58,220 nucleotides of DNA from Candidatus Omnitrophota bacterium (GCA_023247795.1 JAHFFT010000010.1:1-58220), one strand, 5' to 3'; counted from the first letter of the stretch, positions 1-58,220 are shown. Numbers and translations: made by a program. Notes: generated from the letters alone by a model not told the origin.

Positions 1-43
1 CAATCTCCAAAAGCTAACGGCTCCTCTTACCAAACCCATTCTC

Positions 44-106
44 GTGGGGGCCATGGCTTTAATGCTTGGCCTGGCCATCGTTTCCGTTGGTGGAAAGGCG
101 CTTGCC
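44..106 (+). other. Signal-peptide-like hydrophobic N-terminus of gene 1
   Basis: MGAMALMLGLAIVSVGGKALA is a hydrophobic core ending in an A-L-A cleavage-type motif. Lys residues lie just upstream in the still-open frame. Confidence 0.5.
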
Positions 107-19008: not shown

Positions 19009-19041
19009 AAAAGTTCACAATCCTGCAATCCGGGGCTCCGA

Positions 19042-19155
19042 TTCTTTAAAGAATTGCTTGCAAAAGAGAAATTCCGCCAAATGAAGGTTGATGTTGAACT
19101 AGGGATCATTTCTTGGCCGAATGGCGCCAATATTGCCACCGATACGTTTATTTAG
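19042..19155 (+). pseudogene. C-terminal remnant of a DUF2442-family small gene
   Basis: FFKELLAKEKFRQMKVDVELGIISWPNGANIATDTFI* matches the DUF2442 C-terminal signature (F..L.d..F.qv.vd..lG.i.WPnGaDi.pD.ly). The frame opens only at the ATPase stop codon (19006-19008) and has no N-terminal half or plausible start. Confidence 0.5.
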
Positions 19156-19369
19156 AAGCACGCCAGCTGTAAATTATTTTTGACCGCGGGTAATGGCAGG
19201 TCAATTGGAAACCGCAAGTCGTTCTCCATAAATCCCACCGTAATTCTCAAGCGCAAAGGAATGCATAGAAATATTTTTGTTAATTTTGCTCAAAAATAAA
19301 TTTTTTTAAAAGATTAAAATGTTGTAACTTGTTTAAACATAACATCTTAAATCCAACCTAAAAAAATAC

Positions 19370-19397
19370 TTGAAATTATTAGCTAAAGTGTTAAAAT
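19370..19397 (+). promoter_or_regulatory. Candidate sigma70-like promoter for gene 2
   Basis: TTGAAA (19370-19375), a 16-nt spacer, then an extended -10 TGtTAAAAT (19389-19397), about 90 nt upstream of ATG 19488. The region is AT-rich, so a chance match is possible. Confidence 0.35.
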
Positions 19398-19487
19398 CCT
19401 TCTTTACTTCAATAAGACTTTATAGAGAGGTTTTTGCATCATTTTATAACATATACGTTAATCAATCGCTATCTGAAGCTGCCGTAG

Positions 19488-19598
19488 ATGTATTCCTTTC
19501 GCACCCCAAGAGGTTACAAACCGCACACCAGGATTTTAGCCGGCCTCATCATCTTCTTTTTTATATCCAATGAACTCTTTCGATCGGTTGCCTTTGCC
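19488..19598 (+). other. Signal peptide of gene 2
   Basis: MYSFRTPRGYKPHTRILAGLIIFFFISNELFRSVAFA/NP has a basic n-region, a hydrophobic core and an A-F-A cleavage-type site. Confidence 0.6.
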
Positions 19599-22500
19599 AA
19601 TCCCATGGCGAATTCTTCTTCAGTCACCGACGAAGAAGACAAAGTAGAATTTCAAACCAGTCTACTGACCACAAATAATGCCGGCAGCGCGCCCCTTCAA
19701 CAGCCGGTGTTGGCCCCAGATACTCTTTTTAACCCAGAAATTCCAATCCAGTTCAAAAATCTTCCACTTTCCGAATTTAATTTTGAGCAAAGAGCGCGAA
19801 ATTCGGTGAGTTATCCTTACGTTGAATACGATGCCAATGGCAATAAGACCGTGTTTGTCAGTGATCAGCTGAGAATGGTCTTTGAAAAGCTCAGCAATGG
19901 GGAATTTCGAATCAAAGATTTGTTTTGCGGCCCAGAACATGCCGTTTACCGGTTTGCAGACGGCAAGCTGTTCATCACATTGGAAGGACAAAATCAAGAA
20001 TATCGTGAGGAGTTTGTCTATCAATGGGATGACCTTTGCCAGGGCGCAAACTGTCAGATTTTCTCGGCCAAGGAAAAGCTCAATCATAACGAAAATTTTG
20101 ATGTAACTCTAAATTTTTCAACAGGTTGGAACTTTTTTAGTAACCCATTTTCCGAAGCAATTTCGCTCAACTCGCTGGCGGCTGATTTTATGGAGTCAGT
20201 TTGGGCGTGGGATAACGCGGCTAAAAAATATGTCAGGGTTAATGAAGCCTTAGAGCCGGGAAAGGTTTATTGGGTGTGGGTGGATGTGGCTGGTGAGCGC
20301 AAGTTTCAAGGGCGGAAGGTCATCAATATTAACCAGCAGTTAAGTGTTGGGTGGAATCTAATAGGTTCAAGTTATGACAGCCCAAGATTAGAGAGCGTTA
20401 TTGATACGGCCCAAGTGACCGGCCCTTTATGGGATTGGAAAGATGCCAGCTATAAGGCCCATACCATCAATGAGTCTTTGGTTCTTCCAGCGGGAAAAGG
20501 TTTTTGGATCAATGTCAGTCAATCAACTCAACTCAAATTGGCTAAGCAGATTGATTCAGTATTTTTGTCGAGCTTTGACACCATGCCCCCCTTCGGAACG
20601 GTTGTGTTGAATGCGGGGAATGCTTACACGAATTCAGCAATCGTGAATCTGGCTTTAACCGCGGATGATCAGGGGTCTGGCGTGCGTCTGATGCGCTTTT
20701 CCGTGGATGAGGGATCGACTTGGAGCGAGTGGGAAGACTTTAACAAAACGAAGATGTTGGCTTTACCGACGGGCGACGGAGAGAAGAATGTCCAGGCAGA
20801 GCTGCAAGACCAGGCCGGGAATATCTCCGCGGTGACCAGTGCCAACATCATTTTAGATACCCAAGGTCCGGTCAGTACGTTTAATGTCGATTATATTTTG
20901 GATCAAGAGGTTCGGCTCAATCTAACGGCTCATGACATGCTGTCGGGACTCAAAGAGACGCGTATCTCATTTGACCAAGGAAATACTTGGACGGAATGGG
21001 AAATTTTTACCGCCGCTAAGGTGTTACCTAAACCAGTGAACGATCAGCAGCTGAATATCAGGTATCAATTGCGTGATCAGGCCGGAAACGTTTCTAGTTT
21101 TGTGGTCCCTTTGATCCAGATTGTGACGGAAATTCCGAGTTTGATTGATCAGCAGAATTGGGAATTTGAATATCACGTCGGAGATGAAACAGAAAATCGG
21201 AAAAGGATTTTTGAATTGACGAATGGGGTCAACGACTTGAGTGTTGTTGTGACAAACAACGGAAACAAGATCAATATCCGTTTTCAGGTTTTATTTTTCG
21301 AGCGCAAAGGTGATCTGACCAAGGGGGGAATCTTGCCCTATTTTAATTTTTTTGATTCCCAAGCCAATCCGGTGACGGGTTTGAGCAAAAGCCTTTTCGG
21401 CGATAATTCTGATGCCATCCATCAATACGGCACGTTTACCTATGACATGGCGCTGCGGGCCATCGCGCAGTTGCAGCAAACGGTTTTATCCACTTACGCG
21501 CAGAACCGCTCCTTTGCTTTCGGTGAGGATGCCCCGCAAACGCAGGAGGTGAATTATACGCCTAATGAAGGAGTCTTAAACACAATTCGCATCCTCAATT
21601 TTACCGGCAACTGGTGGACGACCTGGGATTTTTCTGTCTTCGGCGGACCCAACGCCTGGATCGGGATCGCGGCTTTGCAGAATTATAGTCAGCAGCCAGC
21701 CGAATGGTTGCTCAATTTCGCGAAAGAACGGGCGGATTTTCTTCTTCATCTGCAAGATAGCGACGGGGGATTAAGGCAGGGGCCGATCGGGCAATTCAGC
21801 CCGACGGCGGATTTTAGCTTTTTCTGGAACCAGAAGTCCACGGAAAATAATGAAAGTGCCCTGTATTTTTTTGACATGCTTTATCAAATGACGGGTGAGC
21901 AAAAATACAAGGATGCCGCTGATCGGATTTACGCTTGGATCAAGGCCATGTATGATCCAACACAGAAAATTTTTTCCCGAGGGGCGGTCTTTCAAAACGG
22001 CAATTGGGTCAAAGACGGTGTCGGTGTTTACGCGTCAGATACGACCAACTGGGCGCCGATCGAACGTATGCTCGACGATCCCTTTTTCGGCGCGCCCCGT
22101 CAAGAACGATTGGCGCTTTATGAACAGATGCTGACGGCCGAGGAGACGCTCACTGGCGTGCGCGACCAACAAGGTGTTTTAAAGGGCATCAGCTTTTCGC
22201 CTTCGTCGGCGGCGTTGGGTGCTATATCGATCGAGTGGTCATCGCAACTCAGCTTGCGCTATCTTCGCGTCGCGACAGAGTATGCCAAATTGAACGTCGC
22301 CAGTAAGACTTTGGAGTATTGGAATAAATATCAGCAGCTCATTTCTGGTTTAGGGCAATATTTTCAAACCGTCGAGAACGGACGTGTTGCGCCACAGGCG
22401 GTTTCTAGCGACGGGAATGCCTTGACTGTCAATACCGGTCACGGCTGGTCAACGTCATCGGCCTACGCGTCGGCGGCCAGTGGTTATTTTTACGGAATGG

Positions 22501-25500
22501 CCAAGGCAGGGTTTGATCCACTGGTCCTGCGCTCGGGTGTTGACATCAGTCATGCCATCCGTAATGCTCAAAACATTTCACCGGTCATTGTGAGTTTGCC
22601 GAATGACCAGACCGTTCTAGAGGATACCGTTGCTGGTGAACAGATGGCACTCGACATTCATCAATTTTTTTCCGATCCCAATAACGACAATTTCACAGTA
22701 ACCGCAACAAGTTCTGATGCCTCGATCCTTGATACACGTGTGCAGGGTCAACTGCTGACTTGCGTTTTGGAGCCAAACCAGCACGGGGCCGTTACTGTTA
22801 CCCTTACCGCCGATGATCATTATGGAGGGGTGGTCTCGACGTCATTTGAGGTGTTGGTCCAGGAAATGAACGATCGTCCTTTGATTGACAATGGAATCGC
22901 CGATGTCTCACTGCAAAGGAATGCTGGGCCAATAACGATCGATTTGGCTGTGACCAAGGCCTTTGCTGATGCCGAGGAAGGGACCGCGCTCGATTATCAC
23001 GTGACCAATCCTAATCAGGAAATTTTCAGTGATGTGCGTATTGTCGACGGAAAATTGATCATCGCCGTCAAACCAGATGTCTTTACGCTTACTCCGCAAC
23101 CGATCACGGTAACCGCCACCGATCATGCTCAGACACCTTTAACAACGGAATTGACATTCTTTGTGATTGTCGAGGCTGGTACTCAGCAACTCACTGTTGC
23201 GCCGATTGACGTCATAGTGCAGGAAAATACGCCAAGGGTCATTGATCTCGGAGATTTTTCGGAAGGGCAACAGGTGGATTATGTCATTGTGACGCCACCG
23301 GCCCACGGGACTTTGGGTGACAGGGTTGGCGATGATATCATCTATACCCCTCAGGATGGATACGAGGGAACGGACCAGTTTACGGTTGCTGTTACCGATG
23401 GAGTCAATGTCAGTGAACCATTGGTGGTAACAATCAACATCCAGGCCGCTATCGACGATGAGACCCTTCCCGCGAATGAAAACACTTTGATTTTGCATAT
23501 GTCACAGCAGGATGAATCGATCGAATTTGCGTTGAGGACAGGTCGCGAAGACAATTCGTCTGATATCAATATTTTGGAAGTGCCAGAAGGTGGAACATTG
23601 ATAGAGAATGGAGATGAGACCTTCCAATTCATCCCTGATGAAGATTTCGTCGGTATTGTCACGATTATTTACACAGTGATCGATCTTGAAAGCGGTCTGG
23701 GGGGCCCCCCCGAGCAGCTTTTAATCGAAGTCCATCCCGCGTCATCCGATGATATCATCCAGGATCAATCATTCGCTTCTCTTAATATCCGCAATGTTAA
23801 ATTTTTAAAACAAAGGCGTATCGATCAGCTCCGTCATGAATCCGAGCAATTCATTGCCAAAGCGCAAAGCGTCATAGCGCAAGTTCTTCATGGGCGTCTT
23901 CTGTCGCAGTTGGCCGCGGGTGAGGCCTTATTGAACCAGGTGTTAAGCAACGCGATTGACTCTTTAAACAGCCAAATCGCGCGGAAACAGGATTCACTCG
24001 ACGCTGTGAGTGATCATTTCGATGGTTTTTCTTCTTCTGCCCAGCTGACGGCAGAAATCAGCCGACGCTACCAGCAAATCCATGATATCGCGGAGACATT
24101 GACTTATCCGCTGGGATCATCGGGCGCTGTTGTCGTTTATGAAGATGGAAAAATCACAACAACAGCAACGGACGATGATGGTCAACAGATTGAAACGCAC
24201 TATGAATTCACGGTTGATGGAAAGGTTTTTCGAAGAATCACGCATCGACAAGACGAGCGATTCATCTATGACGGCGCAGGCACACTGATTGAATCCATCG
24301 ATGCGGAACATAAGCATACCATTTATTATCCCGACGGGCGTGTTCGCAAAGAGATCTGGGTCAACGCGGACGAACAAGCCTTTTGTTCGATCACAACTTA
24401 CAATGACGTGAAAGGAGAAATCATTACGAAAGTATATCGTCTGCCGGCGGGGTACGTCCCATCATCGGACAGCGCGGATCAGGATGATTGGCAAGTTGTG
24501 ACCGATTCCCTTCTAGGGCAGGATGGAAGTTCGATGCAGGTCCTGACCCATTATCTTGACCGTGAAAAAATTGACCGATGGATCACCGATCACCATCGGA
24601 ATGTTTTTGGTGATTCTCTGGAAGCGACTTATGGCCCGGACGGATATCCTTTGGAGGACCGCGTCCTGTACATTTTGAAAAATCATCCTGAACTGGTCAC
24701 GGTTTTGGGTCTTTCTCACGCCAAGTCGGCCCTGGATGAGTGGACCGCGGATAACCATCGTAATCCTTTTGGGGATTTCCTGGGAACAGCATTGCCTCAA
24801 AATGTCGAGAAATATCAGTACCTGATCGAACATCATTTTGAAGACGATGGTTTCAAAGATTATCTGACCAAGGGGTTGAATGTCATTGAAGATACCGCGG
24901 TGGTGCAGAGCGGTTTTATTTTCATGATGGACAATCAATTTTCATTAATGTCTGTTGTAAACCCTCAAGGTCAAGCGGTTGCTCTAACTGGAACTCCCTA
25001 TCAGGTCATGGAAGAAAATATCGATACCAACCCTTATCTTGAACAGTCTAGGATGAATCTCTATAACGCTCTCAAGGATGATTTTTCGATCACATCGATT
25101 GAAGATATTGTTTTTAATCGCGCGGGCTTTTTGGCGCTGCCCAATGAAAACGGCCAGGGGTTAAGGCAATTTCTCAGTTTGGAATTTGAGTACGGAGGGT
25201 TTTCTTTTGAATACCGCGTTGATTTGGCCACGAGAGTGGTCAGCGTATCACCAAAAACACTGGAGATGTTGAACATTTTCAAGAAATCCAAGGCGGCGGT
25301 GGCAGGATATTTTACCGGGATGGGCCAGACCCGAGATGTTAAAGACATGAAGGTGCTTGTGCTCAATCAGATGCTGTGGCGTGACGGTTCGTTGGGCGGG
25401 TATCTCAGCTCAACGGAGGTTTCACACGAGCGTACGCCGGGGTATTCAATCCTCATCGCGGTTGGCGATAAAACATTTCAGGTCCATAGTGATCAAGAGG

Positions 25501-28500: not shown

Positions 28501-31500
28501 ACGCGATCGGCGAAGATTTCAGTCAGATGACCAGTTTCGAAGAGATTGAAACGGCTGTCACGGATCGATTGGCCAAACTCTCTGAAATGATTAGTCAAAC
28601 CGAAAATATTAATAGTGATCTTGAACAGGCCGTTGAAAATCTTGAAAACGCTATCACGAAAAATTCAGCGGAACAGATTTTTGTGAATGTTCATCCTGGC
28701 GATTCGATTGTGTTGAATGCTGATTTTGGTTCAGCAACGGAAATCCTTTGGCGCCAAATCGAAGGACCGGTGGTGAGTTTACAGAAGCTGGATGACCAAC
28801 ACATCCGTCTGCAGGTGCCAAGACAAAGCAGCGTTAATGAATTGATCATCGGGGTCAAGGGGCTTGATCCCCATGGGCACATCGTTTATGAAGACACTTC
28901 ACTCAACGGAATCCAATATCTTGAATTGGGAGGACAAGCCATTCCTATTCAAGCGACGTCGGAACTTCATTATCAATTTGATGAGACTGGACGAGTGATA
29001 ATGGTCACTGACGCCCAGAACCGGCTTTTGTACCAAGCTGGAAACGCGCAAAATTCATCGGGGAATGGAATCATTTATAGCGGTATTCCTGGGGCCGATC
29101 ACCGGGTGCTGCGTCTTAAAAATATCCAGCGGTTCGACGATAGTTTTGAGTCGGTCATGGAAGAGACGGGTTTGAACATCAATCTGGAAGACCCTCCTTT
29201 CGCAAATACTCTCAGCGTTGATCAGTTGGCGCAACTCGCCGATGCTTTAAGACCTTCTGATCATGACGTTTTTGTTTTTGAACCGGTTAGGCCCGGTGTC
29301 ACTCGGATCGATTTGGCGGAAAAAACCGATACATTAGACTATCTTCCCGAACGAGGCGCTTTTCACGTTGACATTGTTGTCAAAAAGCAGGATGGAAGTA
29401 ACCCCAACACCAGATCGCTTTTCATCGATGAAAGCCAAAATGATCAGGTCGTTGAAGTTTTTGAAAACGATATCATCAAGGTCCGGCTGCCAGTCCATCT
29501 TCCTTATCGATGGGAATTGCAAGATGAACATGTTTTAACCCCGATGGATTCCAATGTCAGTGACGCAGAAAGTGAATACTCCTTTGCTGTCCAAACAAAA
29601 GGCGGGGAACTCTTAAGTTTTTATGAAATAGATCCGTCAAACGCCAGAATCTTGAATGAATTTGCCGTTTATGTCCAAGCCTCAGAAAAGAATGAAGAAG
29701 ATGAACCTCGTCGGATTGTTTTAAGGCCGGGCGACCGTGGCCGCAAGATTTCGGTCCGTGTCGGCGATACGATTGCTTTGGAATTCCCGCGTCAAACCGA
29801 GACTTCGGCGTGGATTGAACGCGTTGTCGAAAATTCACAAATGACGGTTGTGCATGATGAGCTGGGGCATGTTATCCGTGAGAATTATTCGGATGGAACA
29901 TCGATCATTTACGATCCTCAAGGAAAATTAAAGCAAGTTATGGATCTTAGCGGTAAGATTCTTATTGATAAAAACGATGAGCGTTATTTGCTGCAGACCG
30001 ATAAATTCGGGAATCAGTTTGAGTGGACGTATGTTAAAAACGCTCAGCAGCAGTTGATAGCAACTTTGATCACGGGTCCATCGGGAACAAGGATTTTCAA
30101 TGCTCAGGGTGAATTATGGAAGTTGACCGGATTGACACTCGAACAAAAAAAGCGAATCGATCAGTATTTAGGTCAGCATCCACAGTCTTTACCGCAGCCT
30201 CCACCCGCGGACCCATATTTGTATTGGATCGAACACATCAATGCTTTCCGCAATGATCCTAAACTTGGCGCCCTTTTGCACGATGTTGTCACAGTAACTT
30301 ATGAAAAAGATGATGAAGATCAGATCATTGCCAAAATTGAGAGTCGTCCCGGATCTTCGATCAGAACGGAATATGATGATAAGGGCAATCCGGTTAAGGT
30401 GGTTGATTCCGACGGATCGACGATTGAGACCAGTTACACTTACGACGATGAAGGCAAAATTTTAGCGTCAACGGTGACAACCGATGCCGCGGTCATGGGC
30501 TATGATGCCAGCGGTACCCTCCTTTATCAGCAAAGCCGGCTGAACTCTTCCTTCGCGTCAGCATTCAACTATCTTCGGGGAAATGATCAAACCATTTTGA
30601 CGGAGTTTGAAGAGCGTTCCAACGGGGTCTTGGTCCGCACGGACTATTCGGTGAGCGAACAGGAAAGAGCTGTTGTCGACCTGGATGGAACCATCCATTA
30701 TTCGTCGGAAAGACTTCCAGAGAAAATCACGGAATACATTCAAATAGCGTTCATCCTGCAAGCCCTTTCGGAATCCGAGATTGTTGATCAGATGGAATTT
30801 GACACGACCGGAGAGCGGGTCGAACCTTTCAGCCAGGATACACTTTGGGTGAAGTGGACGGAAGGGGCGGAATCATCGGAGATTGGGAGTCTGCTGGAGT
30901 CGGCCGGCCTGGAATTGGTCGCGGGTGCCGTTCGGGGAGGTTTTCATAAAATTCATCTTCTCGAAGAAGCGTTGCGGCCGGGCCGGGAAACAACATACGA
31001 ATATGAATGGGACAATGGACGTGTTATTGAAACCCGTATCCGAGCCGCGGAGGGTGTCATCGTGATCAACGCCTCCGGAGAAACAATCGCCAGCGTTGAT
31101 GGCCGCCGCCCGTCAGAAATCATTTTGGTCGAAATAACGCATGACCCTTTAACCGGTTTTGTGGAAAAGGTCAACAAATACAAACACAGTGATGCCGACA
31201 GCAATTTTTTTGAGGATCCCCTCAAGTACCGCGATCTGACATTCAAGAACGATGAGATTTTGTCAGCGGAGACCTATGAGACGATGATAAAAAACGCGGA
31301 TGGGAATCTTGTTAATGTCGATGACGTGATCCAAGCCGAACTGTCCGCCCCTGGCAGGACAGGAACATTTCCTCACACGGCATTTGATTTGATCCGCAGT
31401 TCGGAACAAATCAACCGGTTAAGGGAAGCGCGCTATTACGCCCCCGACCGGATTGTGCTCGTGAAACATATTTATGAAGGACGCCGTCTGAAGGAAATCC

Positions 31501-34500
31501 AATCTTACAACATTGATGTTAATGCTCCTCTGAGCCCTGGTGCTTTGCGGCAAAGGACCGTCTATGCCGAGGACATCGTTGATGAGGAATTTCCGGACCT
31601 GGATGAGTCCAGTCGTATTTCCTATGAATTGTTTTATCAGGGGCCCGCGGGCCAGGAAACAAAGGCCACCCGGAGCGATTTCACTTATAAAGCTGGTTCC
31701 GTGACCGAACTGGAGGCTTACCACAAATTCAATATTGCCGGTGACATTCCCGATAATACCACTGATATCCTGTATCTTTTGTCCGACGTCATCCCAACAC
31801 AGACGGACCATGGTGATTATGGTTATGAAGAAGATGAATTCGGACCGCTGACAACATTTTTCTTTTATTCCAACGGTAAATATCATGATTTCCGAGCGCA
31901 GGACACCGATGACAGCTTTTATGTCGATTATTCGGTCAGCTACGCGGGAAAATTGACTGAAATTCCTCAAGGCGCTAACCCGGTCCGGATCACCACGTTC
32001 ATCAAGATGGGTGATGATGAATTCAAACGCGAAACCAAACTTTTCCGACGGGAAGGAGATCGAATCACGACGGACATCGCGAAAATTTTGCGTTATCAAT
32101 ACAGTTTGGGATATTTGGAAAGTGGTGATGGGGATGCCGCCACCCTTGACCTGGTTGAGGAGTTTGAGCCTGATCCTCAAAGTGAGCAGGATGGATATAA
32201 ATTGATCCGCAACAACTTTTATCGAGGAGAAGTGCGGGTCAAAACTGTTGATAACCTTCAGAAAACGGCCACTTATTATTTTAATTCCGTTGAAGACCAC
32301 GGCAATCATCCTTTCAGCGCCGAACTTTTGCAAGATTATTTCGGAAACAGTTTTTCTAACCTGTTGGATTTTTTTGCTGTTACCGCCGCGGATCTTGATG
32401 CGGACAGGGATGATGAGGCTGAGGATGAGGCTGATGAGGATGAGAGTGATGATCGCAAAGCTGATCTGGATTTTGCCGTGACTGTTCATGAACGTCACGA
32501 CAAGGCCATGGAAAAAAGTTTGTTGATTTATCGTGGCGAGAGCACAAAGGAACTGATTGATCGATCTTTCACGGCTGACGGAAGTATTACGGTTTTTAGC
32601 TATAAGTCCGATGGGAGTCGGGATTATTCCGTGAGTTATGATCGTGAACGTTCTAACGCGGTTGTCAAGACCTGGTATCGAGGTCAGCCCGGGCAGGAAC
32701 TGGTTTCGGAAGTCCAATTCGCCGATGGGTCAACCGCGGTTTATCGTTATCTCGAAGATCGCAATGAAAATTATGTCCTGGACCCTCAGGAAGACAGCAA
32801 TGGCGATGGCCGGCTGAATCTTTCGGTTGTTCAAAAAAATAAATGGATTGACCAGGACACTCAGTGGACCACAACAGAATATTATCGCCCGAGCGCGTCA
32901 GGGGAAGATGATGAGCTCGCTTTACAGTTGAGCCCGACGGGAAGTCCGATGGGATTCATCAATGTTAAGAAGGAAGACGGTCATTACGGCGATATTGATT
33001 ATACCGAACAGCGGGTCATTCAGTATGTGAACAGGGAGCATATTTCGTTAACCGGCATCCCTTTGGCCGACAGTCTTGCCGGGATGTTAGGAAGCGCCCA
33101 AGACGTTGATGATCCGGTTTTTCTCAGCCGAATCGGGGCCGCTGATACGATTGAGACTGTTCAAGTCAGTAGCCTCGACGGAGATTTGATCGCGGTTTAT
33201 CAGCCCAACGGTGTCGTGCAGCGATTTGTCAATGAACGCAATGAGCGATCAGAAATCATCAGAACGCTTGAAACCTCGGAATTTGATGCCAACCACGATG
33301 GAGATTTTGACGATCCGCAGGAATATTCCTTTAGTGAAGAGGTTCTGAATTATACCTTGGCTGACGCGTCTATCGAAGGTTATTTCAGGGGCCGCCCCAA
33401 GAGCCGTAAAGATAAAAATGGATTCATTACCGACTATGAATACGCGGTGAATTATTTAGGCGAAATCATCGGAGTTAAGGAAATTGACATCAATCGGTTC
33501 GGCCAGGGCGATCAAAATACTCGCGCGGATAAACCGTTTCGTCAAATTTATTATTTCACTTCGGACTATGCCCCGAATCCAGTCTGGAAAGGCGAGATCG
33601 CCAAAATCATTGATCAAAATGGTCAGATCGTTTATTTCACCTATGAGAAGGGCCCCCAAGGCCAGACTCGACGGGTGATGGAGCGAAATTCTCATAGAAT
33701 TCAGAGCGAGCGTCGTTTTAATGAAGCAGGTCAACTCATTGAGGTGAACGATCCATTGGGTTTCAACATCAAAAGTGAGTATCTGTTGAATGATCAAGGC
33801 CAAACGATCGCTGAGGCTCGCCATTATACCGGAGCGATAACAACGCTTGATGGGAAGGTTGATGTGGATCACGAAGAGTTTTATCAATATGACTCTCGAG
33901 GACGAGTGGTCCGTTTCATTGATCGCAACGGACTCTTGACCAATATCACTTATGTCGATGATGCCAAGGGTAACACGATCGTCAAGCGAACAACCACTTA
34001 TTTGAAAGCAATGGGCGAGGACAATTATGAAAAAGTCACGGTCGCTATGCCCTCGCTTCAAAATATTTCAGATCTGACTTGGGATTTTGATGTTGAATTG
34101 ACGACCGTTGAAGATTTTGACCTGGTTAGCAGTCTGCCCGTCAAGCGGGTTGATCCAGACCAGCGGGTGAGTGAGTTTGATTATGATTTTGATTCCTTGG
34201 GCAATCTGAACCAACGCGACACCAAAATCAAGGAAATGGAAAGTGACGTTGAAAAATCCTTTGTGGAAAAAACAGAATTTTATGTCAGCGACGGACTGAA
34301 TTATCGCAAAGGTGATATCAAAGCGCAGGTGGATAGAAATGGTCTTCGCACCGAGATGAGTTATCACCGTAATCACAAGGAACAAATCACATCGATGCGC
34401 CGCACAGTGATAATTCCGGCGGACTATGACGTGGCCGGACATGATATCACTTATTCGGAAGAGACCTATCTTGATCCAGTGACCGGCACCGTGACCGCGA

Positions 34501-43500: not shown

Positions 43501-46500
43501 CCGTAATCTCCACAACAGTTTTCGAAGGGTTGAGGAGAGTTTCAGATCAGACGGTCATCATCGTCCCCGATGGAAGAACAACCATCATCACCGGTTTTGA
43601 TGGGGACACGATCCTTTCGCGGGTAACGACGCACGAGACTCTTTCCGGCGTCTCGATTGAAGTCAGCCAGTATGAGAATGGGGATTTGACTGGCAGCCGC
43701 GTTTGGACATCGACTTCCGACGATGAATCGCAAGGGACATTGGTCATCCGTGATGGCCAGGGTCGTACCATGCTCGTTTATGAAGGCATTAGCCGTGGTC
43801 TTATGGAAGAAGACCAGTCTGATCAAAAACCCATTTTGATCACGAGTTTTAATCCTGCAACACGACAGGCCATGATCAATCGCATTGAGCAGGCCTTCGG
43901 GACCCTCGGCAATTTTGATTTCGCCCGGTATGGATTGGGTTCACTCAGCCGTATTATCGCCAATATTCGTTTTGGCGGATTTGAATTTTATGTCGAGGAG
44001 ACGGAAGATAAAATTGTTTTTTACAAGACGGACCATCCGGGAGAACCCATTATGATCTTGACCAGAACTTCCGGGCCGTTGGACGTGATTTTGGGCCGGT
44101 CGGAAAAATGGAATCTCATTGTGTTCACCGCGAACGGCGCGGACCGTCATGGTGATTTTCTCAATATCCTTACCGGCGTCAAAGACGTTTATGCCAACGG
44201 TCAATTGAGATCAAGAGAGGTGGGTGAAATCAATTTGTTCACGAATCATTTGACGCCTTTCAAGATCATCACTTATCGAGATGATGGCGAATGGACGTCG
44301 ATCAAAGTGCTCGAGACCGATGGTGGCGGCATCACTTTTCCGGGATTTCAAAACGTCCGGTTTATCGTCAGCCGCACGGAGGTCGGTGAAAATCAATGGA
44401 CGACACAGTACTGGAACGTGTCCGGCAGCAATCAGGAAATCGCGCAAGATCATTTTTTAAGCCCTGGTTCTAAATTGACCGTTGACGCGGACGGAAATTC
44501 TTTTCTATCCATTGGCGGCACGTTTCTAGTCGATGGTAAGGCGTATTTCCGTCGGGATGACAGCCACATCGAAATCTCTCTGGTCGACTGGGACCGCGGG
44601 GGCTTGTACCGCGTCAATGTTTACGCGGCTGATTTGACCGTGTCTTTAAATCAGCTTGACATCCATCATTTGATTTCTTACAAAATCACCGACTACGAGG
44701 GCAACGTGGTGGAAAGTGTCGCCCCAGGTGATGTTGCCGGGACTTATGTGAGAACCTCTCAGGACGACATCGGTCACGTCTACCGCGCGGTTTATCAAGC
44801 ATCGTCCCTTGAGCAGATTTCAAACGCGAATCGTATTTCTTACACAATCACGATATGGGGTCAGGAGGTTGAGAATTTTGAAGCCCTTCCTGGCGGGCTA
44901 TTTGTCATCAATAAAATCAATCTGCAGACGGGAGAAATTGTCACCCACAATTTCCGTGGTGAAACATTTGAAGAAAGCATGGAGTATTCTTTTCAGCATA
45001 CCACACGGGAAGGGCTGGTCACGGAAAGCGCTGTTGTGCGCGGTAACGGAACCATTGAGCGAATGACGCGCAATGTCAAGACTGGTGAGGTCCGCAATAT
45101 GATTTTCCACGGCAGTTCGTTGACCGACGTGACCCCGGAAAATCTTTATTCCTTTGAAGTTTGGAATTCGAGAGGACAGAAAATAGCAAGCCGTGATCCC
45201 CTGGATGAAGGCGGTTTTGTGGACACCGAATGGGACCTGGCGAAGAATACCGTGACCGCGATCAGTTATAACGCGCAGGGGCAGAAAACCATGTTGATCA
45301 GGCATGGTCCTTCCGGGCCCCTCATGATCGCGTTTGTCAGCGGCGGTGAGGTGAATATGTTAACAAATCAATACACTTCTAATCCCACTGATGTTTTGTT
45401 GCAAGGACGGGTGATTAGGGGGAGGCTTGTGGGTGAGTGGGACCCTATCAATCGGCAGGTCCTTAAAGAAAATGCTTACGTATTTACCGGTCGGGAGTTG
45501 ACGAGGGTCTATGGTCCCGCGGTTTTAGCGAAGCTGGGGTTAGGAACAATCAATCCGGATGAACAATATTTTTTCTACGGAGACGCGATTTTGGCTGATG
45601 AAGCAAATCCTTATGGACAAAACCTTTTTATCCGGGCGGCATCAGGCAATGTGTCTAGACAATATTCCGCGATATGGAGACAAACCGGCGGTGTCATTCC
45701 TTTTGATTTCGAGTTCATTGGAAACATTACCTCGGGAACAACTGCCCATGGGGCCCAATTCTCTAACACCCGAGACGCCAATGGCGTCCTCATTGATCAG
45801 CGCGTTACTATGCCGTCGCAGTGGGGGGGAACATCAACGATGATCGTTGATCGGAATTTTGTTGCCACTCAAATTGAGACGAAACCGGATGGCAGCAGGG
45901 TTATTCAAACCGGTGGGGGGCTGATCTATTACATCAAACCTGGTGGCACCGACTCGGACAGAGTACTTTTAAATGGTCGCGGCTTTGGTTATGACGCTCG
46001 TACATTTGTCGACGGACGGCCGATGAGCCAGACCGAAAGTTGGAGAGTGAGTTTGGCCCAGAATGGTATCAGGACCGGTGTTCAGAATGGAGGGATGGGG
46101 GTTGGGATCGACGCTTTGATCGCGTTTTACAACTCCGGACAGATTGCCATCGGCGGCGCTTCGAATCTTTTGGGAGCGGGTGTTAATCTTTTTACCGACG
46201 GAGACTCCTTCTTGACCACATTGGGTGGTGGTTTGGTACAGAGTGGCGTTATTGGTCTTGGCAGTGACTTTAAGGCTGGCCCGGTGGGAGCGACGGTTGG
46301 TGTGGCTGCCGCCCTTGCCGGTCTTGGCTATTTGGGTGGTGTTAGTTTATCCGGCGGCGCTTCGGCAGCAGTTTCAAGTATTGGTAATGGGCTCATGAAC
46401 GCTGGCCGGGCTTATTTGGTTTATGACGCGCTGAATCAATTTGATGACGGTAACTACACAAAATTCGCAATGGATTTAGCGCTTCTTCCACTGGGACTCA

Positions 46501-49500
46501 AATCTTTGCCGGCGGGACTGATGACCCCGGCTAAACTCCTTGCCGGAGGCCTTCTTGGCTATGGCGCGTTTCAAACAGATAATCCTTATGAAAGAATTCT
46601 TTACGGAATTGGAGCGTTTGGAGCGTTGGGTTCTCTGGGGACAGGTGCCCTGGCGAGTCTTGCTAATCTTGTTCCCGGCGGATATTTTGGCGACGCGGAA
46701 CTATTATCACTCATGACGATACCGGCATGGGCGACCACAGCGGGCAAGTTTGCTCTTCCTGCCGCCTCATTGTTAGGAGGCGCGTATTTAGGAACGGATT
46801 ATTTACTCAATTATGAGGACCGCAATTTTAGTCAGGCGCTAGGCGCTGTTGCTTTACTTGCCATAGGCGCTATCGGTGGGGCCGGAGCATTGGCAGGTAC
46901 TGGGTTAGGCACGAGATTGTTTGGTCCGGGCGCCCAATTAGCGCAGCAATTCAATTCGATCGTTACGGTTGGCGAGGCGCTTTCGATGGCCGGTGCCGCG
47001 ACAGCTCAAGGTCTTTTGATTTCACCAAAGCTTTATGGATTGAGCAATTTTATTGTTAATCCCTTGTTCAATTTTGCTGAGCGGGCGGGAATTTATCACC
47101 CGACCTATAGCTATCTCGGTCAATCTTATCAAGGCGAGGAACTCTTGCAGTTATACAGCCGGCTTAATCCCAGTCAATTGAGTCAGGTAAGACCAGGCAG
47201 CTTTTTAACATCGATACAACAAAATATGCTGGGTTCGGCGCAGGGTGATTTGCAGTCGATCATGTTTACGACGGCTTTTGGCGCGCCATTTTCTTTTCTT
47301 ACCAAATTTGGTCTTGAGCCCGTTATCAATGGCGGCCTTGCCGGTCTCGCCGGGAATTATAGAAATTACGCGCTGTTCGCTGATCGGATCAGGAATGTTT
47401 ATAACACCTTCGCCGGTGGATCACTGGGTCTGGAATGGATTGGTGAGAATGTTCTAAAAAATGCTCCAGCGGAGTTTCGAGAATTTTTCCGTATTGTTGC
47501 CTCCGGGGTCGATGAGTGGGTTGTGGAAGACTATGCTTCGAAGCTGGCAACATCGATTGGGTTGCCAGATTTCATTTCTGAACAACTGGCAGAAATTTTA
47601 AGTTCGGGGGTGGAATACAATGCTGGTTATCAGTATCAGAATTTTTCTAATGTGATTATTGGTTCCGCCAATTTGGGAGACATTTCGAGAAGCGGTTACA
47701 CGGTTATTGGCCCAACCGGACAAATCAACACGCTGCAATTCCAACAATATTTAGTGGATCGTTTCGATATTTCTGATGAATTGGCCAGTCGTTTCGCGCA
47801 GAGCACGTTTTTGGCTGATGCGTTTATGACGGCCGTGTCAGGCGGACAATTCAGTTTGGTCGATTTGAACCAGTCCATCGTGGAAAACCTGCTTCTCACC
47901 CAAGCCATGGGGCAGATTTTAACAGCCGGGTCAGTGACCAACAGCATATTTCAGGGATTGGATTTTGGGCAGGGGCAAACGGCGCCAGTGACCAGAGAGG
48001 TCATTGAGGATTTCTTGACCGATACGTTAAAAGTGACGGTGCCAACACCGACACTGGATCTGATTTATTTTGCGTTGAGCGGTATCAGCACTTTGAATCC
48101 CAGTCAGCGAACGGCCTTGGCCAATGCCATTAGGATTTATGGGTTGGATATCGCGGCAGAACAGAGCGGGGAAACCAATGTACCACCAGCGGAAAAATTT
48201 GCCGCCTACACCCAACTGCAGGCGCTGATCCCAGTGCCGTTTGGCTGGGATCCAACAGAGGTTGTAAGACCACCGTCGCAGTTGACCGGACAAGCGAAAC
48301 TGGAAATGCGTGATCCAGGACGTCCAGCGGAATTGAACATTTACGTTCAGGGCGGACAGCGTATTACCGTGCAAGTGGACAACCCAGCTACATTTCAAGC
48401 TGTTTATACGCAATTGGCCGCCCAGGGTGGGCGCATGGAATTTGTCCAAAATGGCGGCGCGCAGATCCGTATTCTTAGCACGGCAGGAAATCCGATTTTA
48501 ACCGGCACGTTGGTTTTACCGACGGGAGTTGCTTTGGCGGATATCATACTCAATTTGGATATCCAGACCGGGACTTATTTGGATGTGCCGAACGCTTTTA
48601 AACAAGCTGTTGTTCAGGGGATTCAGCAAACCGCGCTCGAATACAGCAATGATTTGGCGGAACAGACAGAAGGGCTGGCCGAAAGTGCCGTCCGAAATCT
48701 GCAGATCGCGCCATTTTTGATTCAGAGCACCATGACCAAAGCGCTCAAGCTCGCTGATCTGCTGAAAAGAGGATCTTTGGGAACCGAAGCCCGGCAGATC
48801 CGGTTCGATCTCGAGAAGATTCTTTTGGCCGTTACTCCGCTGCTGAATGAAGATGCCATTTTGAATTCAATGGACCAGGAAATAAAAGCGGATGTCTTGT
48901 TTATGGTCATGGCATTGAATGACGCGATCAAGAATTCGGCAAATCGGAAATTGTTGAATGAAACTAAAACGATTTTTGACAATTTGTTGAGTCTTGGTGA
49001 ATATTCCTATGAACAGTTGGTGATGGTTAAAGACCTGCTGGCTGGACAGTGGAACGGCAGGTCCTTTGTTGAAAGTTTCAATTTGTTCAGATCATTTAGA
49101 TTAGAAGAAGATCCAGCCTTTGCGGCTAAAATGATTGGGTCAACTGTTACAAAAAATGATAGGAGGTCGATTTTTACCGCGATTGATGCTGCGAGGAGCA
49201 GGCCCGGAGGAACGACTTCTCTTGCCCAAATTCCTCGAGAGGGTTTTGATCATTTGCAAGATGCCGTTGCTGATTACATCGGTGGCAGCACAGTTCTAAT
49301 GGGAGAAGAGAGACAGGTCATCCTCGATGCCGCGCGAGGAAAACCCATTACGACAATGAAGGGCGCAACGATTGCGGATCCTTACCGGGTGGAATTGATT
49401 CAGGTGGATTTGGGTGATCAGAAGACCCATAGGATGGCCGAAGGCTCTAAATGGCCTGGACCTGTGGCTGTTAGACGTCTGGAACTTGACGATAACAATT

Positions 49501-52500
49501 CAATTGTCTTGCGCGTTTATGTGACAAAAGCACGGATGGGAGATGCTTTAAATAGCGATGATATGATCACTCTCGCTGAAGAAATCAAGCATGAGCTGGA
49601 TGAAGGGGTGTTGGGCAAGTCGCATCCAGAGGCGGTCTTAAGAGAGATTGATTTGGAAAATGGCGACCATGAGGAGATGCTTTCGTTGGCCACTAAGTAT
49701 CGTATGCGATTATTATCTCCAGAAAATTTGATTGATTTGATTGAAGGCACAGCAAATAAACACACTGAAAACTACAAGTTACACGCGAATGGATTGATCG
49801 ATAAACAGACCTATTTACGCCTTGTCCAACATACCATTGCTATTTTTGAGGAAGCAATCGTATTGCTGGAAAATGAGCAATTCCTTGCTTCGTTGGCATT
49901 GAGACAAGCCAATGCTTTTGTTTCCATATTGAAATCTTCGAACAAGGATCAGCTTGCTGAGTATTTTAAAACTTGGGAAATCCCTAGGTATGGTCCGATT
50001 GAGATGCGTTTATTTTGTTTGATTATTGCTATGAGTATTGATAGTACTAACCTGGATAAGATTATTAGTGTTGTCTTAAGTGGAGAAATTTCATCAGCAC
50101 AAAAGGATCGTCTTTCGGATTTTGTCATACAGGTATTAAATTCACGAAATAGTATCATTAGTCAGAACATGAAGTCTCCAGGAACTACGATTGAGTCGGC
50201 AGACAAAGGCGCGAGGAATAGCGATGTGAATTTAGCGAGAAACAATAATAGAGTAAAGACTTTAGGGAATGACAATAAATTTGCCGATGGCACAACAGTC
50301 TTGGAGAAAACGGCAAGTATCATCGAAGCCATGCAGCCTCCGGTTGGTTTGTCCGGTGAAGCGCTTGAAAGATTTAATCGAGAAAGAGATTTTCAGACGC
50401 AGGTGCTGCGGCAAGGGAATTATAAGATTGGGAGTAAGATCATTCAGCAGTTCAAAATTGAAGTGGTTGATCTCGAAGGTCGGGAGGCCTTTTCCGTCAT
50501 TAGTGATCAATCACAAGGCCGTGGGACAGGAATATTTTGGCAGGGAGAAAAAGATGGGTTCGTTCATATTTATATCACCAAAGCTTATTTGGAGCGTCTC
50601 ATTCGTCTGAATCAGCCGGTTATCCTTGCTGAAGTATTTAAACATGAGTTGGACCAAGCCATATTTGGTTACCGGCCGATCCAGACTGTGGCCCGGGAAA
50701 TCGATTTGGAACCCGGCGCTGACCACGCGCTTTCACTGGCCACCAAAGACCTTTTGTATCAAAGGATGGGGCAAACTCCAATCCAGTATATCGTCTACCT
50801 CTCCGGCCTCATTGACAATACTGAAACCAAAAAACAAGAAATCCGTAACGCTTATACGGCAGGAAATCTTACCGTCCAAGAACGCGACCGGCTTTTGGCC
50901 ATGGCCGATGAGGTCAAGGCCGAGGCCAATCATATTCTCAACATTTCCGGTCCTTTAGAAGTGACGCGCGACGCGAATGGCCGGGTCAATTTTATTCACT
51001 ACACCGATTCTTCAAATCCTCTTCAAGTGATAAAAGGATCGATTGTTCCGAAGTACGACGCGGCAGGTAAGCTCATCGATCTTGAAGGGACGATTCCTGA
51101 TTCCATACTCGATTATCTTTTCGCGAACGCGAACAATGTGATTTTGTGGGGCGCAAATGCGCAAGGGGTTTTAGCGGTGCTTCAGGCGAAATCCAGACCT
51201 AACCATACTGCTGAAGTGGTTGGAACGCATCCCTTCTTAGTTAATCTTTTTGATGGGACAGCGAAACAAAGGCTTTATGTGGCAGATGTTCATGGAGTTG
51301 TGAGGCCGTCTGTTTTCTCTAAGCCCAGTCAGGGACTCTTTAATTTATTAAACAGAGTGAGCAGCTCGCATTTTAATGAAGTGATGGATGCCGCTACGGG
51401 AATCATCCAGAGCGTCACTAACGAAAGAGTGGGGGATGCAGAAGTTTATGCCTATTTGATTTCTCACAGTCGTGAGCAGGTATTAGGTTTGTCTTCACGT
51501 GCATCTGCCACAGACTTTCGGTATTTATTAGAATTAAAAGATGCAATGGATTCTGTTGGAATGTTAAGCGGCAATCAATTAAATCAAGCCGCCATGAGTT
51601 ATTTGAGTGGTTTGGATACTTCCTACGAAATTTTACGCGCGCATGTCAATCAAGTCATCAGAAATTCGGGATCAAGTTCTGTGATTAGTAACGTTCAGGA
51701 AATTGTTCAGCTTAATCTTTGGGGCGTTGACGATGGACTGGAAACCAAAGTGTTTCAAGTGGAAGTTTTTCTAAGAGATGGCAGACGCGTGCAGTTTGCT
51801 TTGAATGTAGCGCGCGATACCACAACTTCTTCAAGCGATGTTAAAACGACATCCCAATTTATGCGTTCAAACTATGAATTAAATGAAGGTGGTCTTGCAG
51901 AAGTTTTTTCAGAGTCATCCGCTGTTGCAGTTGCGACTTTAAGTGGTCCTCAGAACGTTCAAGTGATGGCCGGCGCCTGGCTTGAAAATAGCAGAAAACT
52001 TAAAATTAAGGCGAATACCGGGCCTTTATTTTATGCGGTCGAACCAAACTCAAATAGAGAAATACCTATAAGCCGCGCGGAATCAAATACGATATGGTCC
52101 CAAATTGTCAGATTGATGACACTTAATTCTTCCATCGAATCATCCACGGGATCAGCTTTTGTTGTTTTCACTGACATTGCCCGCAATGACTATGTTCAAA
52201 TGGGAAATGGGGATATTCGCCTTACGTGGAGCGATGGTGTTCAAAAGGTCAGCGACCCAGCCCTTATTTTAGCGCGTGGTCTGCTTGTCCACACAACCGT
52301 TGTGCGTGATGGGACAGCAGAGCTCGCGAACGTTTATTGGGATGAGCCGGGACTTGCCATTCAGGCGATTGAAAGTGGATTTCTGCAACGGGCGCGCCGC
52401 CAGGCCCAATTAGAAGGACGGAGCGTTGCTGACGCGGAACGCGACGCACGAATCCAGTTGAATAATTTATGGGAACAGGCCTATACAAGGACACTTCCTT

Positions 52501-55500
52501 CGCTGCTGACCCTAACACAAGACGCTCGAACAATCGCGGTCATCCAGCGCGTGCGTGAAGCAGTTGGAAACCACTTACCATTGTCATCGGCCTTTTCTTC
52601 TAGGAGTCTTAACACGGCGTTGGGGCTTAACAATATTTTAGCCCATCCGGATGTGGTTATTGAAGCAGATGCAATCAGAGCAGATGGGACCAGAGTTGTG
52701 AGTATTCGTCTTCCGGCACGGCAGGTTGTCGATGCCGATCAGGTTCCACAAGGTTTGGCATTTTTACAATATGAACTTGCCAACACAACACAATTTGATC
52801 TTCTCTACAATGCCAAAGGCGATCTCATTGCCGCGCTCCCCCGTGTGTCTTCTAGGGATGAATTTTTAAATGAGATTGCTCCTAAACCCGGAGTCAATCC
52901 CCGGTATTTGAATCTGAGTTATTATAATTTTAAAGTTCCTGATTTGGGCGATCCCGCGGCCGTTGCCAAATGGACCAATTTTGCCAATGAGCGGCACGCG
53001 GACCAACAACGAATTGACAGTTATATAGCAAGTCGCTTTGGGTCTTTAGGTGTAACAATTCAGGGGCTTGATGCCAAATATGATCCTGTCTCTGGAAACT
53101 ATATACGGAAGAAAGAATATGTTTATGCTGAGATTGATAAGACAACGGGTCAGGTCGCTATTAAGGAAATCGATCTTGATTCTCCGGACCTTGTTAATCA
53201 GGTTTCCAAAACGCTTGATCCAAACAAACATCAGATCATTCTTCCGGTGTTCCCTACCATTTATTCGCCGGGAGAACAAGTTAACTTTGTCAGCGATAGC
53301 AGGTATCAGACCGCGATTTTTAATCAAATGGGCATTGCGGCGAATCACGACGTTCTGATGGTTGGTCCGGGAACAGGTTTGGATGTTTGGATTGCCTCGC
53401 GAAAAACAAATAAGCCGATCAATGTTATCGGTATTAATCCCTTGGAAATGGCCAATCTCGCGGTCACCGCGGCACTTGGGGGATTTCAAGTCCACGCGGT
53501 GTTAGGAAATAATATCATTCGAGAAGACGGAACGCTGGTCATTGGGGGAAAACGGTTTGATAGGGTCATTTGGAATTTGCCTTCTTATGATCCTGGTCCG
53601 CCCCCGGGGATTGTTGAGAAAAGACAGTTTGCTGAAGAAGGTCTAAATCCCGACGATATTTTTCAAAAGATGATTGAGAACGGTTGGGCAAGGCAAGTCA
53701 GTCCAACCGAGGTGCTATTGACAGTTAATTTAGTCGATCAAGCAGCTAATATGGCAAATGTTTTTGGTCCCCAATTCCCGGCCATTTTGACTATTTTACA
53801 AGCGTCTCATCCGAATGATCCTGTTCTGCTTACGGAACGACATGACCATGATTTCGAGGGAAGGATCCTGAGGCGTTTTGCTCAAGGGCTTCCGAGTGTC
53901 CTTAATGCGGATGGTCTCGCGCTCATTTGGAACATTCGGGTGTTGAGAAAGGGAATTATTTCGAAAAATCAAATTGAAGAAGCCGGGCTTGATGTCAACG
54001 AAGTTTTTCAAAAACTGGTGGAAAATGGATATGTCCAAACAATAAGCCCAACCCACGTGGAGTTAACTGACTTTTTAGGCCAAGAAGACCAGCGTAATCT
54101 GGAAAATATTTTTGGTCCCCAATTCACAACACTTTGGCCTATTTTGCGAAGCGCCCAAAATGTCATAGGCAGAAATGTGGTTAGTGAGATTTTGCGTTCA
54201 GCGGGAAAATCCGATGGTTTTACCGACGTCGCGCCCGGGGACGTTGTCTTCGATGTTGGTTTTACGCAGCGAAGGCTTTATTTTATCAAATTCACGGCAA
54301 ATGGTTCGAGTAGGAATGAATTTGTGAATGAAGGGGCCCTCGGCTTAGGGACAGCTTTTAATGAAATCAGCAATATTACGACCCAGGCAATGTCATCGGA
54401 GAAGGCCGGTCAAGTCACCGCGGCGATTGGTCAATTGGAAACTGCGGCCCAAGATCCGAAAATGACCGATGAGGAAAGAGCGTTGGTGATGCGGGTCGTG
54501 GTCAAACTCCGGGAACTGCACGCTGCTGGACGCATCCAAGATTTTAACGCCCTCATCCGTGACAGCGATGATTATCTGTTGGCCTTTTTCCGATCAACCA
54601 ATGGCGGTGTCATTGGGTTGTCGGATAATTTTACCGATTTGGCCAGGGTGTTGTTGAGGGAAGGGCTGATCGCGATCGGAGCATCAACGAATTATGAACA
54701 GCATCGATTTTATTATGAAACCTTGCAGGCAAAACTTTTAGGTAGGGGAACAGAGTTTCGTCTCGAGACCAGGACCAACATTGAACAGCCACTTTTTAAC
54801 GATCCGGTCAATGGCCTCGCTCATGCCCAGGCGTTTGTGAATCATTTTGATTATCCCTTGCAAGATAAACTCGATGTGCTTTTACGTCTCATCGATCTAG
54901 GGAATACTGATCCGGCTTATCAAGCCGCGGCAGCGAATGCCTTGGCGGTTTTGGCCGTTTGCTTGAATCAATGGCGGTCGTCAGTCAGTGCTGCCGATGG
55001 GCATCTTTCCGACGAGAGCGAACTCTTTTTGGATCAATGCATCATGAGGCTGATCAATGCTGGTATCAATGAAGTCCCTGGAGTCATGAGGTTTGATCCC
55101 GAGACTGGAGATTTGATTCTCTATGGTCCGGACGGTCAAGCTTTGTCGCAAGCCGAGGAAGAAGAATTTATCGGCGCAACACTGCTTGCCCGCAACACCC
55201 GCGCGACGGGAACGGTGCCTGCGGCGCTGAAAACTTTGCCAGGCTTGGCCCAAGGCCGGGTGGTTTTGACGACGGGTGACACAGCCGATTCGCAAATTAA
55301 CCTTAACGCACTGCGAACGCAAGTCGATCAGAAGCTTGCCGCCAGCGGTGGTAAAGGCCCCATCACGTTAGATTTGCCCGGTGGAAAACAGGAAACATTT
55401 GCTTTGCAAACCATCAATGGGATCAAGGTTCTTGTTCCGGTGAATACGTCACTTTCCGATGGGGCGCTGGCGGCTATCTCAGAAAAAGTTTTAGCGCGAG

Positions 55501-58220: not shown

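Follow-up and report, generated by a model that had tools for sequence, protein, structure and literature searches.

A stretch of 58,220 nucleotides (nt) from Candidatus Omnitrophota bacterium (GCA_023247795.1, JAHFFT010000010.1:1-58220), called the window below, was analysed on one strand and its complement. Three genes cover 98.7% of it: a giant open reading frame (ORF) designated U, a gene for an ATPase with AAA_14 and DUF4143 domains, and a second giant ORF, designated G, which begins at ATG 19488 and is still open at the last base. No Rfam family and no tRNA were found in the window. G, the subject of this study, is a real gene, coding for a protein of at least 12,911 aa. The features are collected in Table 1, in which amino acid (aa) positions of G were converted to window coordinates as 19488 + 3(aa-1).

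Table 1. Genes and domains located in the window; aa numbers refer to G unless U is named.
Feature	Position in window	Strand	Extent and basis
Giant ORF G	19488..58220	+	Open translation, G+C pattern, orthologous open frames; 3' end lies past the window
Putative Sec signal peptide	19488..19598	+	aa 1-37, A-F-A / N-P site; hydropathy and reading by eye
Immunoglobulin (Ig)-like beta-sandwich repeats (OmpL47-type / Big_3_2)	20571..21143	+	aa ~362-552 (repeats from aa ~193)
(alpha/alpha)6 six-hairpin glycosidase-like domain	21321..22550	+	aa 612-1021; homologues, profile, AlphaFold2, Foldseek
Big_9 / Cadherin_5 / tandem-95 Ig-like repeats	22569..23690	+	aa ~1028-1401; Pfam, NCBIfam
Sparse, degenerate YD/RHS repeats	28965..36143	+	aa ~3160-5552; Pfam, TIGR01643, regular expression
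Laminin_G_3 (ConA-like lectin) domain	34650..35132	+	aa 5055-5215; Pfam E=1.3e-18
Big_9/cadherin-like domain	36735..36926	+	aa ~5750-5813; Big_9 E=1e-8, Cadherin_5 and Cadherin_4 weaker
Second Laminin_G_3-like segment	37575..37745	+	aa ~6030-6086, partial; Pfam E=5e-8 (offset tile)
Malectin-like carbohydrate-binding segment	39672..39755	+	aa ~6729-6756, short and partial; Pfam E=1.5e-8
Gly/Ala/Ser-rich hydrophobic helix cluster	40785..42002	+	aa ~7100-7505; putative membrane anchor
C39-peptidase-like domain, C-terminal half of profile	41010..41165	+	aa 7175-7226; Pfam Peptidase_C39
'Dark' region	42003..56081	+	aa ~7506-12198; unmatched in family, PDB and homologue searches; purifying selection
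Tandem ~88-aa repeats	56082..57017	+	aa ~12199-12510; self-BLASTP, weak Pfam
Giant ORF U	2..17443	+	At least 5,813 codons, 5' end past the window, own stop; separate gene
Two Xre/HipB-type helix-turn-helix (HTH) domains in U		+	aa ~3709-3895 of U; profile matches, mid-protein
AAA_14 + DUF4143 ATPase gene	17731..19008	+	425 aa; Pfam AAA_14 E=8e-38, DUF4143 E=1e-25

Exact translation of the plus strand from ATG 19488 to base 58220 yielded 12,911 codons with 0 stops and 0 leftover bases. The stop-free frame announced by the first-pass annotation is thus real, and none of the in-frame stops between 19488 and 58220 that it had named as its refutation was found. An in-frame TAG (19485-19487) stands directly 5' of the ATG. 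The base composition of the G region gives each random codon a stop probability of p=0.054, and log10 P for 12,911 stop-free codons is -311. The remaining five frames contained 0.050 stops per codon over the same region (30-110 per 1,000 codons for most of them, in 3-kb tiles) and their longest open run was 436 codons, on the minus strand. Along G, all 3-kb tiles showed the order GC1>GC3>GC2 for the G+C content of the three codon positions, and codon usage was homogeneous, with r 0.84-0.96 between thirds of the gene. Tandem Repeats Finder reported a single 45-nt array in the entire window and self-BLASTP of G detected few, weak internal duplications, so repetition is not the cause of the stop-free frame.

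The mechanical ORF list for 19.5-58.2 kb held only seven ORFs of 173-432 aa, all on the minus strand. G is absent from this list because the lister leaves out any ORF still open where the source sequence ends; as the first-pass annotation had recognised, the gene is hidden only for lack of a terminal stop in the window. The seven antisense ORFs had zero Pfam matches, lie in a locally stop-poor antisense frame and were rejected as genes. Two of them, of 432 and 395 aa (31419-35255, minus strand), overlie the stretch of G richest in charged residues (aa ~4000-5300), in which stops fall to 8-11 per 1,000 codons in one antisense frame. Sense codon bias most likely produced them as a side effect, and a stop-to-stop ORF track displays them as 'genes' instead of G.

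The stop codon of G was not found. An exact 51-mer from the window end was absent from genome, metagenome and viral collections, the last 500 aa had no relative in genome or metagenome contigs, and no searchable collection contains the window itself. Extension of the contig, which had been proposed in the first-pass annotation, did not reach a stop, the orthologous contig ending at window position 55867.

Two contigs of the metagenome-assembled genome (MAG) 'Candidatus Omnitrophota bacterium nzgw298' carry sequence orthologous to G. The 6.9-kb contig JAHFFS010000082.1 (L081) matches window 19145-25162 at 96.5% identity and is colinear with the window for 6,021 nt, gap-free. Its copy conserves the ATG of G and remains open for 1,891 codons, running off the contig end. 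The 30.9-kb contig JAHFFS010000001.1 (fetched part, L114) matches window 31988-55867 at 98.98% identity, with 244 mismatches and 0 gaps over 23,880 nt, and its frame is open across the entire fetched locus (7,960 codons). Zero gaps were thus present in the 5,675 + 23,880 coding nt of G that were compared (~29.6 kb). If its remainder is colinear as well, JAHFFS010000001.1 would start near window 24929 and overlap JAHFFS010000082.1 by about 230 nt. Contig JAHFGM010000011.1 of a third assembly, GCA_023247435.1, covers window 7731-19680 with 99.925% identity and breaks off after the first 193 nt of G. As these contigs of nzgw298 and GCA_023247435.1 indicate, the population has been assembled several times, with the giant gene broken at contig ends each time. 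Sequencing runs of New Zealand groundwater with this population include SRR14366766 and ERZ27297570. The misassembly about which the first-pass annotation had cautioned is largely refuted, since colinear independent contigs answer the concern for most of G.

Comparison of G with nzgw298 by the Nei-Gojobori method gave a ratio of nonsynonymous to synonymous substitution rates (dN/dS, omega) of 0.22 for codons 1-1891 and 0.20 for codons 4168-12126. Each 1,000-codon block compared had an omega of 0.12-0.38, the homology-free part included. The differences were distributed over the three codon positions as 48/39/115 in codons 1-1891 and 44/44/156 in codons 4168-12126, and ~60% of differences were synonymous, against ~22% expected (p=4e-37). 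Purifying selection covers the ~9,850 compared codons of G, with the dark half among them.

Divergence of G from its nzgw298 orthologue was also mosaic. The comparison with L081 and L114 gave a dS of ~0.095 for codons 1-1891 and 11168-12126 (window 19488-25162 and 52989-55867) and of ~0.02 for codons 4168-11167 (window 31988-52988), a pattern which suggests that strains have recombined inside the giant gene.

At its N-terminus G reads MYSFRTPRGYKPHTRILAGLIIFFFISNELFRSVAFA|NP, a succession of basic, hydrophobic and A-x-A parts which, by eye, is laid out like a Sec signal peptide; the hydropathy scan peaks at aa 16-34 and the start ATG of this putative signal peptide is kept in L081. The signal peptide noted in the first-pass annotation is consistent with both. 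The Ig-like repeats that follow matched NCBIfam NF047446 (E=3.5e-13) and Pfam Big_3_2, and aa 362-552 gave thousands of repeat-protein matches. The second set, behind the six-hairpin domain, was recognised by Pfam as Big_9 (E=5e-15) and Cadherin_5 (E=2e-13), with tand_rpt_95 of NCBIfam under its curated cutoff. RHS_repeat (PF05593) matches were located at aa ~3160, 3629, 4801 and 5519, both PF05593 and TIGR01643 (YD_repeat) exceeded their cutoffs at several sites, and looser YD-like motifs were picked up by regular expression from aa ~1590 onwards. An Rhs core domain was matched in G by neither NCBIfam nor Pfam, and the single DPxGL (aa 4755) lies inside the repeat region. The cadherin-like, LamG and YD motifs of the first-pass annotation are accordingly present, as Big_9, Cadherin_5, Laminin_G_3 and YD/RHS matches. 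Its methyltransferase is not: Pfam and NCBIfam (E<=0.1) and a motif-I regular expression found none in G, and the only such matches, both weak and below Pfam cutoffs, were Methyltransf_12 and Methyltransf_11 at the C-terminus of U, a separate gene.

The segment aa 612-1021 reached the threshold of no Pfam family. In an exhaustive HMMER search it was ~50% identical to a 400-aa module of many proteins, and its profile gave a weak match in the PDB to an alpha-1,6-mannanase of glycoside hydrolase (GH) family 76 (E=2.5e-4). An AlphaFold2 model built from a 13-sequence alignment had a pLDDT of 89.6 and a pTM of 0.90, and the top Foldseek matches of this model were the GH76 enzyme BT2949, cellobiose 2-epimerase and YihS (TM 0.55-0.65, E~1e-7). 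The fold and a weak profile likeness are thus common to GH76 mannanases, AGE-superfamily epimerases and aa 612-1021, but identity to these enzymes is 10-16% only, and GH76 (PF03663) had no Pfam match in G and weak matches on homologues only. Invariant acidic residues were observed, for example in LQDxDGGxR, KSTENNES and IEWSSQ; D160, E187 and E317 of the domain alignment are among the conserved acidic positions. The module is widespread. Its genome relatives belong mostly to Omnitrophota MAGs, where the open frames containing it measure 4,188-7,064 codons and span the whole of each fetched locus; genomes (MAGs) of Desulfocapsaceae/Desulfobulbus encode it as a separate protein of ~455-490 aa. 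The module is probably an undescribed carbohydrate-active family.

Downstream of the malectin-like segment, Kyte-Doolittle peaks were found at aa 7100, 7280, 7386 and 7481, forming the hydrophobic cluster, with isolated further peaks at aa 9114, 9670 and 12612. The Peptidase_C39 (PF03412) match beside the cluster (E=3.7e-5, 24 bits vs a cutoff of 22) keeps the His motif NGHFVTV (H7186). As there are zero Cys between aa 1634 and 10176 of G, this domain cannot be a canonical cysteine protease. A single-sequence AlphaFold2 model of aa 7040-7580 (mean pLDDT 44.7) was too poor for a fold search.

Past the cluster, ~5,400 residues are almost without recognisable homology. No Pfam, NCBIfam or PHROGs match was obtained in the dark region, and PHROGs gave nothing on aa 7001-12911; dN/dS in the dark region was nevertheless 0.12-0.38 in each 1,000-codon block as far as aa 12126. 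The ~88-aa repeats behind it are 47% identical over 169 aa by self-BLASTP, with LolA_like and FlgD_ig below Pfam cutoffs and MucB_RseB just above (25.1 vs 22.3 bits). A PDB sequence search with all of G and all of U returned no match, and a word-indexed search of 5.8 billion protein clusters returned no homologue of aa 11412-12911, 6900-7700 or 3000-4000 of G. The description of the translation as 'full of bona fide protein motifs' goes too far, as ~5,000 of the residues after aa 7,500 are without a family match.

Both contigs orthologous to G, at 96.5-99% identity, are labelled Candidatus Omnitrophota (nzgw298), and most of the best ATPase relatives, like most relatives of the glycosidase-like module, also come from Omnitrophota. 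Judged by these relatives, the host of G is an uncultivated groundwater Omnitrophota bacterium. Cysteine is rare in G, with 10 Cys in 12,911 aa (0.08%). The hydropathy, the extracellular-type domains and this extreme Cys depletion point to an exported or membrane-bound protein.

Cysteine is also scarce elsewhere: U has 0 in 5,813 aa, and other giant open frames of Omnitrophota-labelled loci (L082-L100) contain 0.04-0.62%, vs 1.15% in the ordinary 200-1,200-aa ORFs there. This avoidance of cysteine goes unmentioned in West-Roberts et al. 2023 and Nielsen & Lui 2026, the two accounts of such giants discussed below.

U is open from base 2 and is missed by ORF lists that need both ends. It is 99.9% identical in GCA_023247435.1, its C-terminus and stop are conserved in L081, and it contains two internal duplications, one pairing aa 1604-1902 with aa 2557-2847 (85% identity) and the other aa 4415-4801 with aa 5447-5813 (67%). 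HTH DNA-binding modules within a giant and apparently membrane-associated protein are an odd combination. The ATPase gene has its true start at ATG 17731 and the exact 425-aa protein occurs on three public assemblies. Its codon usage is unlike that of the giants (r 0.58-0.68), and the loci around its AAA_14 relatives contained no relative of G or U. GCA_023247435.1 carries the gene; nzgw298 does not, and has in the U-G spacer (L081 410-1225; window counterpart 17444-19487) ~470 nt of unrelated sequence with other small ORFs. The spacer is therefore regarded as a variable cassette site. One of the small ORFs in L081, of 96 aa, was considered as a RelE/ParE-type toxin, a guess unsupported by Pfam (no match). 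In the window, the AT-rich spacer contains a 24-codon ORF, MKVDVELGIISWPNGANIATDTFI, at 19081-19155 (+), without Pfam match; that this segment is a DUF2442 remnant was likewise a guess that Pfam did not support.

Proteins of at least 10,000 aa are well documented in Omnitrophota, and G adds to this known class, while its sequence itself is unique. West-Roberts et al. 2023 (bioRxiv 10.1101/2023.11.21.568195) described Omnitrophota ORFs of up to 85,804 aa and giants with signal peptides, transmembrane helices, C39 and SecA-like domains and RHS-like beta helices; the SecA DEAD-like domain occurs in 'most' of their full-length giants and is thus frequent, not obligatory. Nielsen & Lui 2026 (bioRxiv 10.64898/2026.06.07.730766) catalogued 3,650 proteins of at least 10 kAA (thousand amino acids) from their own samples and 5,761 with those of NCBI MAGs included, concentrated in Omnitrophota and with a maximum of 147,155 aa. 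A signal peptide or transmembrane segment is present in 94% of this catalogue, 80% of the sequence clusters are singletons, one architecture cluster is built on C39, and giant genes were noted to be hidden by MAG fragmentation. The rank 'among the largest prokaryotic genes' given to G by the first-pass annotation cannot be upheld against thousands of such proteins, and G is ordinary in length for Omnitrophota, provided that its 3' part outside the window is not very long.

G resembles these very long proteins in length class (at least 10,000 codons), taxon, signal peptide and hydrophobic helices, in the C39-like domain, LamG (PF13385) and RHS-like beta structure, and in being mostly unannotatable, sequence-unique and truncated at a contig edge, with few tandem nucleotide repeats. 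It differs in that HEAT, WD and TPR content is missing from the part seen, and apart from one shared glycosidase-like module it has no detectable sequence similarity to other giants. Its only neighbours in the window are U and the ATPase gene, which leaves type II/IV secretion, pilus or glycoside-hydrolase genes, a feature of the class, out of view. With the Archaeovorin-type giant of Velamenicoccus archaeovorus LiM (39,678 aa) it shares the character of a membrane-associated giant with glycoside-hydrolase-like and peptidase-like modules, but the searches of G did not detect the Archaeovorin set of glycosyltransferases, methyltransferases, S-adenosylmethionine (SAM) methylases and NUDIX hydrolases, nor the dockerin and TSP3 repeats in which the Dockerin type abounds. 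By its domains G is of neither named subtype in the part seen. The C39-like domain has a counterpart in bacteriocin exporters and in the C39-like domain (CLD) of HlyB: the PF03412 His motif stands directly before hydrophobic helices, as in the N-termini of PCAT and HlyB, and the catalytic cysteine is missing in the HlyB CLD as it is in G. Unlike in these exporters, the match in G is to half the profile, no ABC_membrane or ABC_tran domain follows, and the domain lies 7,100 residues deep.

It is considered likely that G is one genuine gene within the Omnitrophota class of very long membrane-associated proteins and that it acts in the following manner. The N-terminal signal peptide would direct export by Sec. 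Residues 1 to ~7,100 would then form an extracytoplasmic arm, composed of Ig/cadherin-like spacers, the six-hairpin barrel, degenerate YD/RHS beta structure and LamG and malectin modules, and the Gly-rich hydrophobic helix cluster (aa ~7,100-7,500) would anchor the protein in the membrane. The C39-like domain may, as in HlyB, bind or chaperone without proteolysis, or it may employ a different nucleophile. The remaining residues, at least 5,400, would be conserved parts with folds not recognised by the searches above. By analogy, the role of G is most likely attachment to a host or prey cell, together with binding or cutting of its surface glycans. The analogy is with V. archaeovorus, a host-dependent Omnitrophota bacterium, on which the predicted attachment and surface-degradation role is based; its giant protein is reported to be ~3-fold more abundant by proteomics when the bacterium is attached to its prey.

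Several points weigh against this interpretation. The function of G is read solely from domain content and analogy and its topology from a simple hydropathy scan, and the taxon label stems from MAG binning of low-coverage contigs (~3-4x). The barrel belongs to no assigned GH family, the 'DD' pair of GH76 is absent from its invariant columns, and it could be epimerase-like or non-catalytic. SecA_DEAD (PF07517) was not found in any tile of the 12,911 residues of G at E<=0.1, and glycosyltransferases, NUDIX, dockerin (PF00404) and TSP3 (PF18884) were not found by Pfam in the same residues. Window 25163-31987 and 55868-58220, finally, were matched in no other assembly, and it is for these two parts that the caution about misassembly stands.

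An assembly artefact, in which a chimera or collapsed repeat joined unrelated fragments in frame, would agree with the absence of the window from the searchable collections, with the break near window ~25 kb that divides the gene between two or more contigs in nzgw298 and with the mosaic divergence from that MAG. It is nevertheless highly improbable: independent contigs are colinear without gap over 6,021 + 23,880 nt, window 7731-19680 recurs in a third assembly at 99.925% identity, nucleotide repeats are almost missing, codon usage is homogeneous, and a chimera that is stop-free and in frame by chance has a probability of ~1e-311. The last figure applies equally to the idea that G is a decaying relic, pseudogene-like 'ORFan' DNA that has yet to gain stops, as chance survival of such a frame is impossible. 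Although three stretches past aa 1,200 have no homologue among the 5.8 billion protein clusters and most of the C-terminal half is without a family match, dN/dS is ~0.2 and there are no indels over the 9,850 codons compared, the dark half included, which leaves the relic with practically no credibility.

The YD/RHS matches over aa ~3160-5552 in an exported protein, with the C-terminus, where a toxin would sit, off the window, recall TcB-TcC, Rhs effectors and teneurins, and G could be read as a polymorphic toxin whose YD shell encapsulates a C-terminal toxin and delivers it to competitors. This is quite unlikely. The Rhs-associated core (PxxxxDPxGL) is not found by NCBIfam or Pfam, nor is the aspartyl autoprotease motif present, and the sole DPxGL is placed mid-repeat; because a core domain is missing, G is not a classical Rhs toxin. 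Its repeats are sparse, spread over ~2,400-4,000 aa vs ~700-1,000 aa for a cocoon, and they are followed by a long membrane-associated continuation of at least 7,300 residues, membrane-like cluster included, instead of a small toxin, unlike the layout of shell, core and toxin. The literature on Omnitrophota giant proteins has RHS-like open beta-helix filaments instead. That the locus encodes a polyprotein or several products, the frame being cut into many proteins or read from internal starts, is improbable as well. Autoproteolysis by C39 or S8 domains has been raised in published work on such giants and G has a C39-like domain, but this domain is Cys-less and hence no canonical C39 protease, there is no S8 match, and a Shine-Dalgarno-like sequence precedes only 1 of the 182 in-frame ATGs. 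Processing of this kind is compatible with a single membrane-associated giant and does not exclude it, and both the toxin and the polyprotein readings may hold in part.

More tentatively, G may represent an undescribed architecture, consisting of a Sec-exported ~7,100-aa arm, with thousands of residues of degenerate YD-type beta structure and a new six-hairpin glycosidase family at its core, a Cys-less C39-like/glycine-zipper membrane module and at least 5,400 strongly conserved orphan residues, with the near-total exclusion of cysteine as a selected trait of these giants; this is conceivable but doubtful. If it is true, the orphan part would hold new folds or machinery for self-export or effector functions.

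The picture of gene-size limits is unchanged by G, much larger examples having been published. The locus is a giant gene pair backed by independent assemblies; the two ORFs together exceed 18,700 codons and fill a 58-kb window. It illustrates how ORF finders that require a stop and fragmented MAGs hide giant genes, the gene being split here over at least two contigs in nzgw298. Purifying selection over ~9,850 codons supports the view of the Omnitrophota giants as functional proteins.

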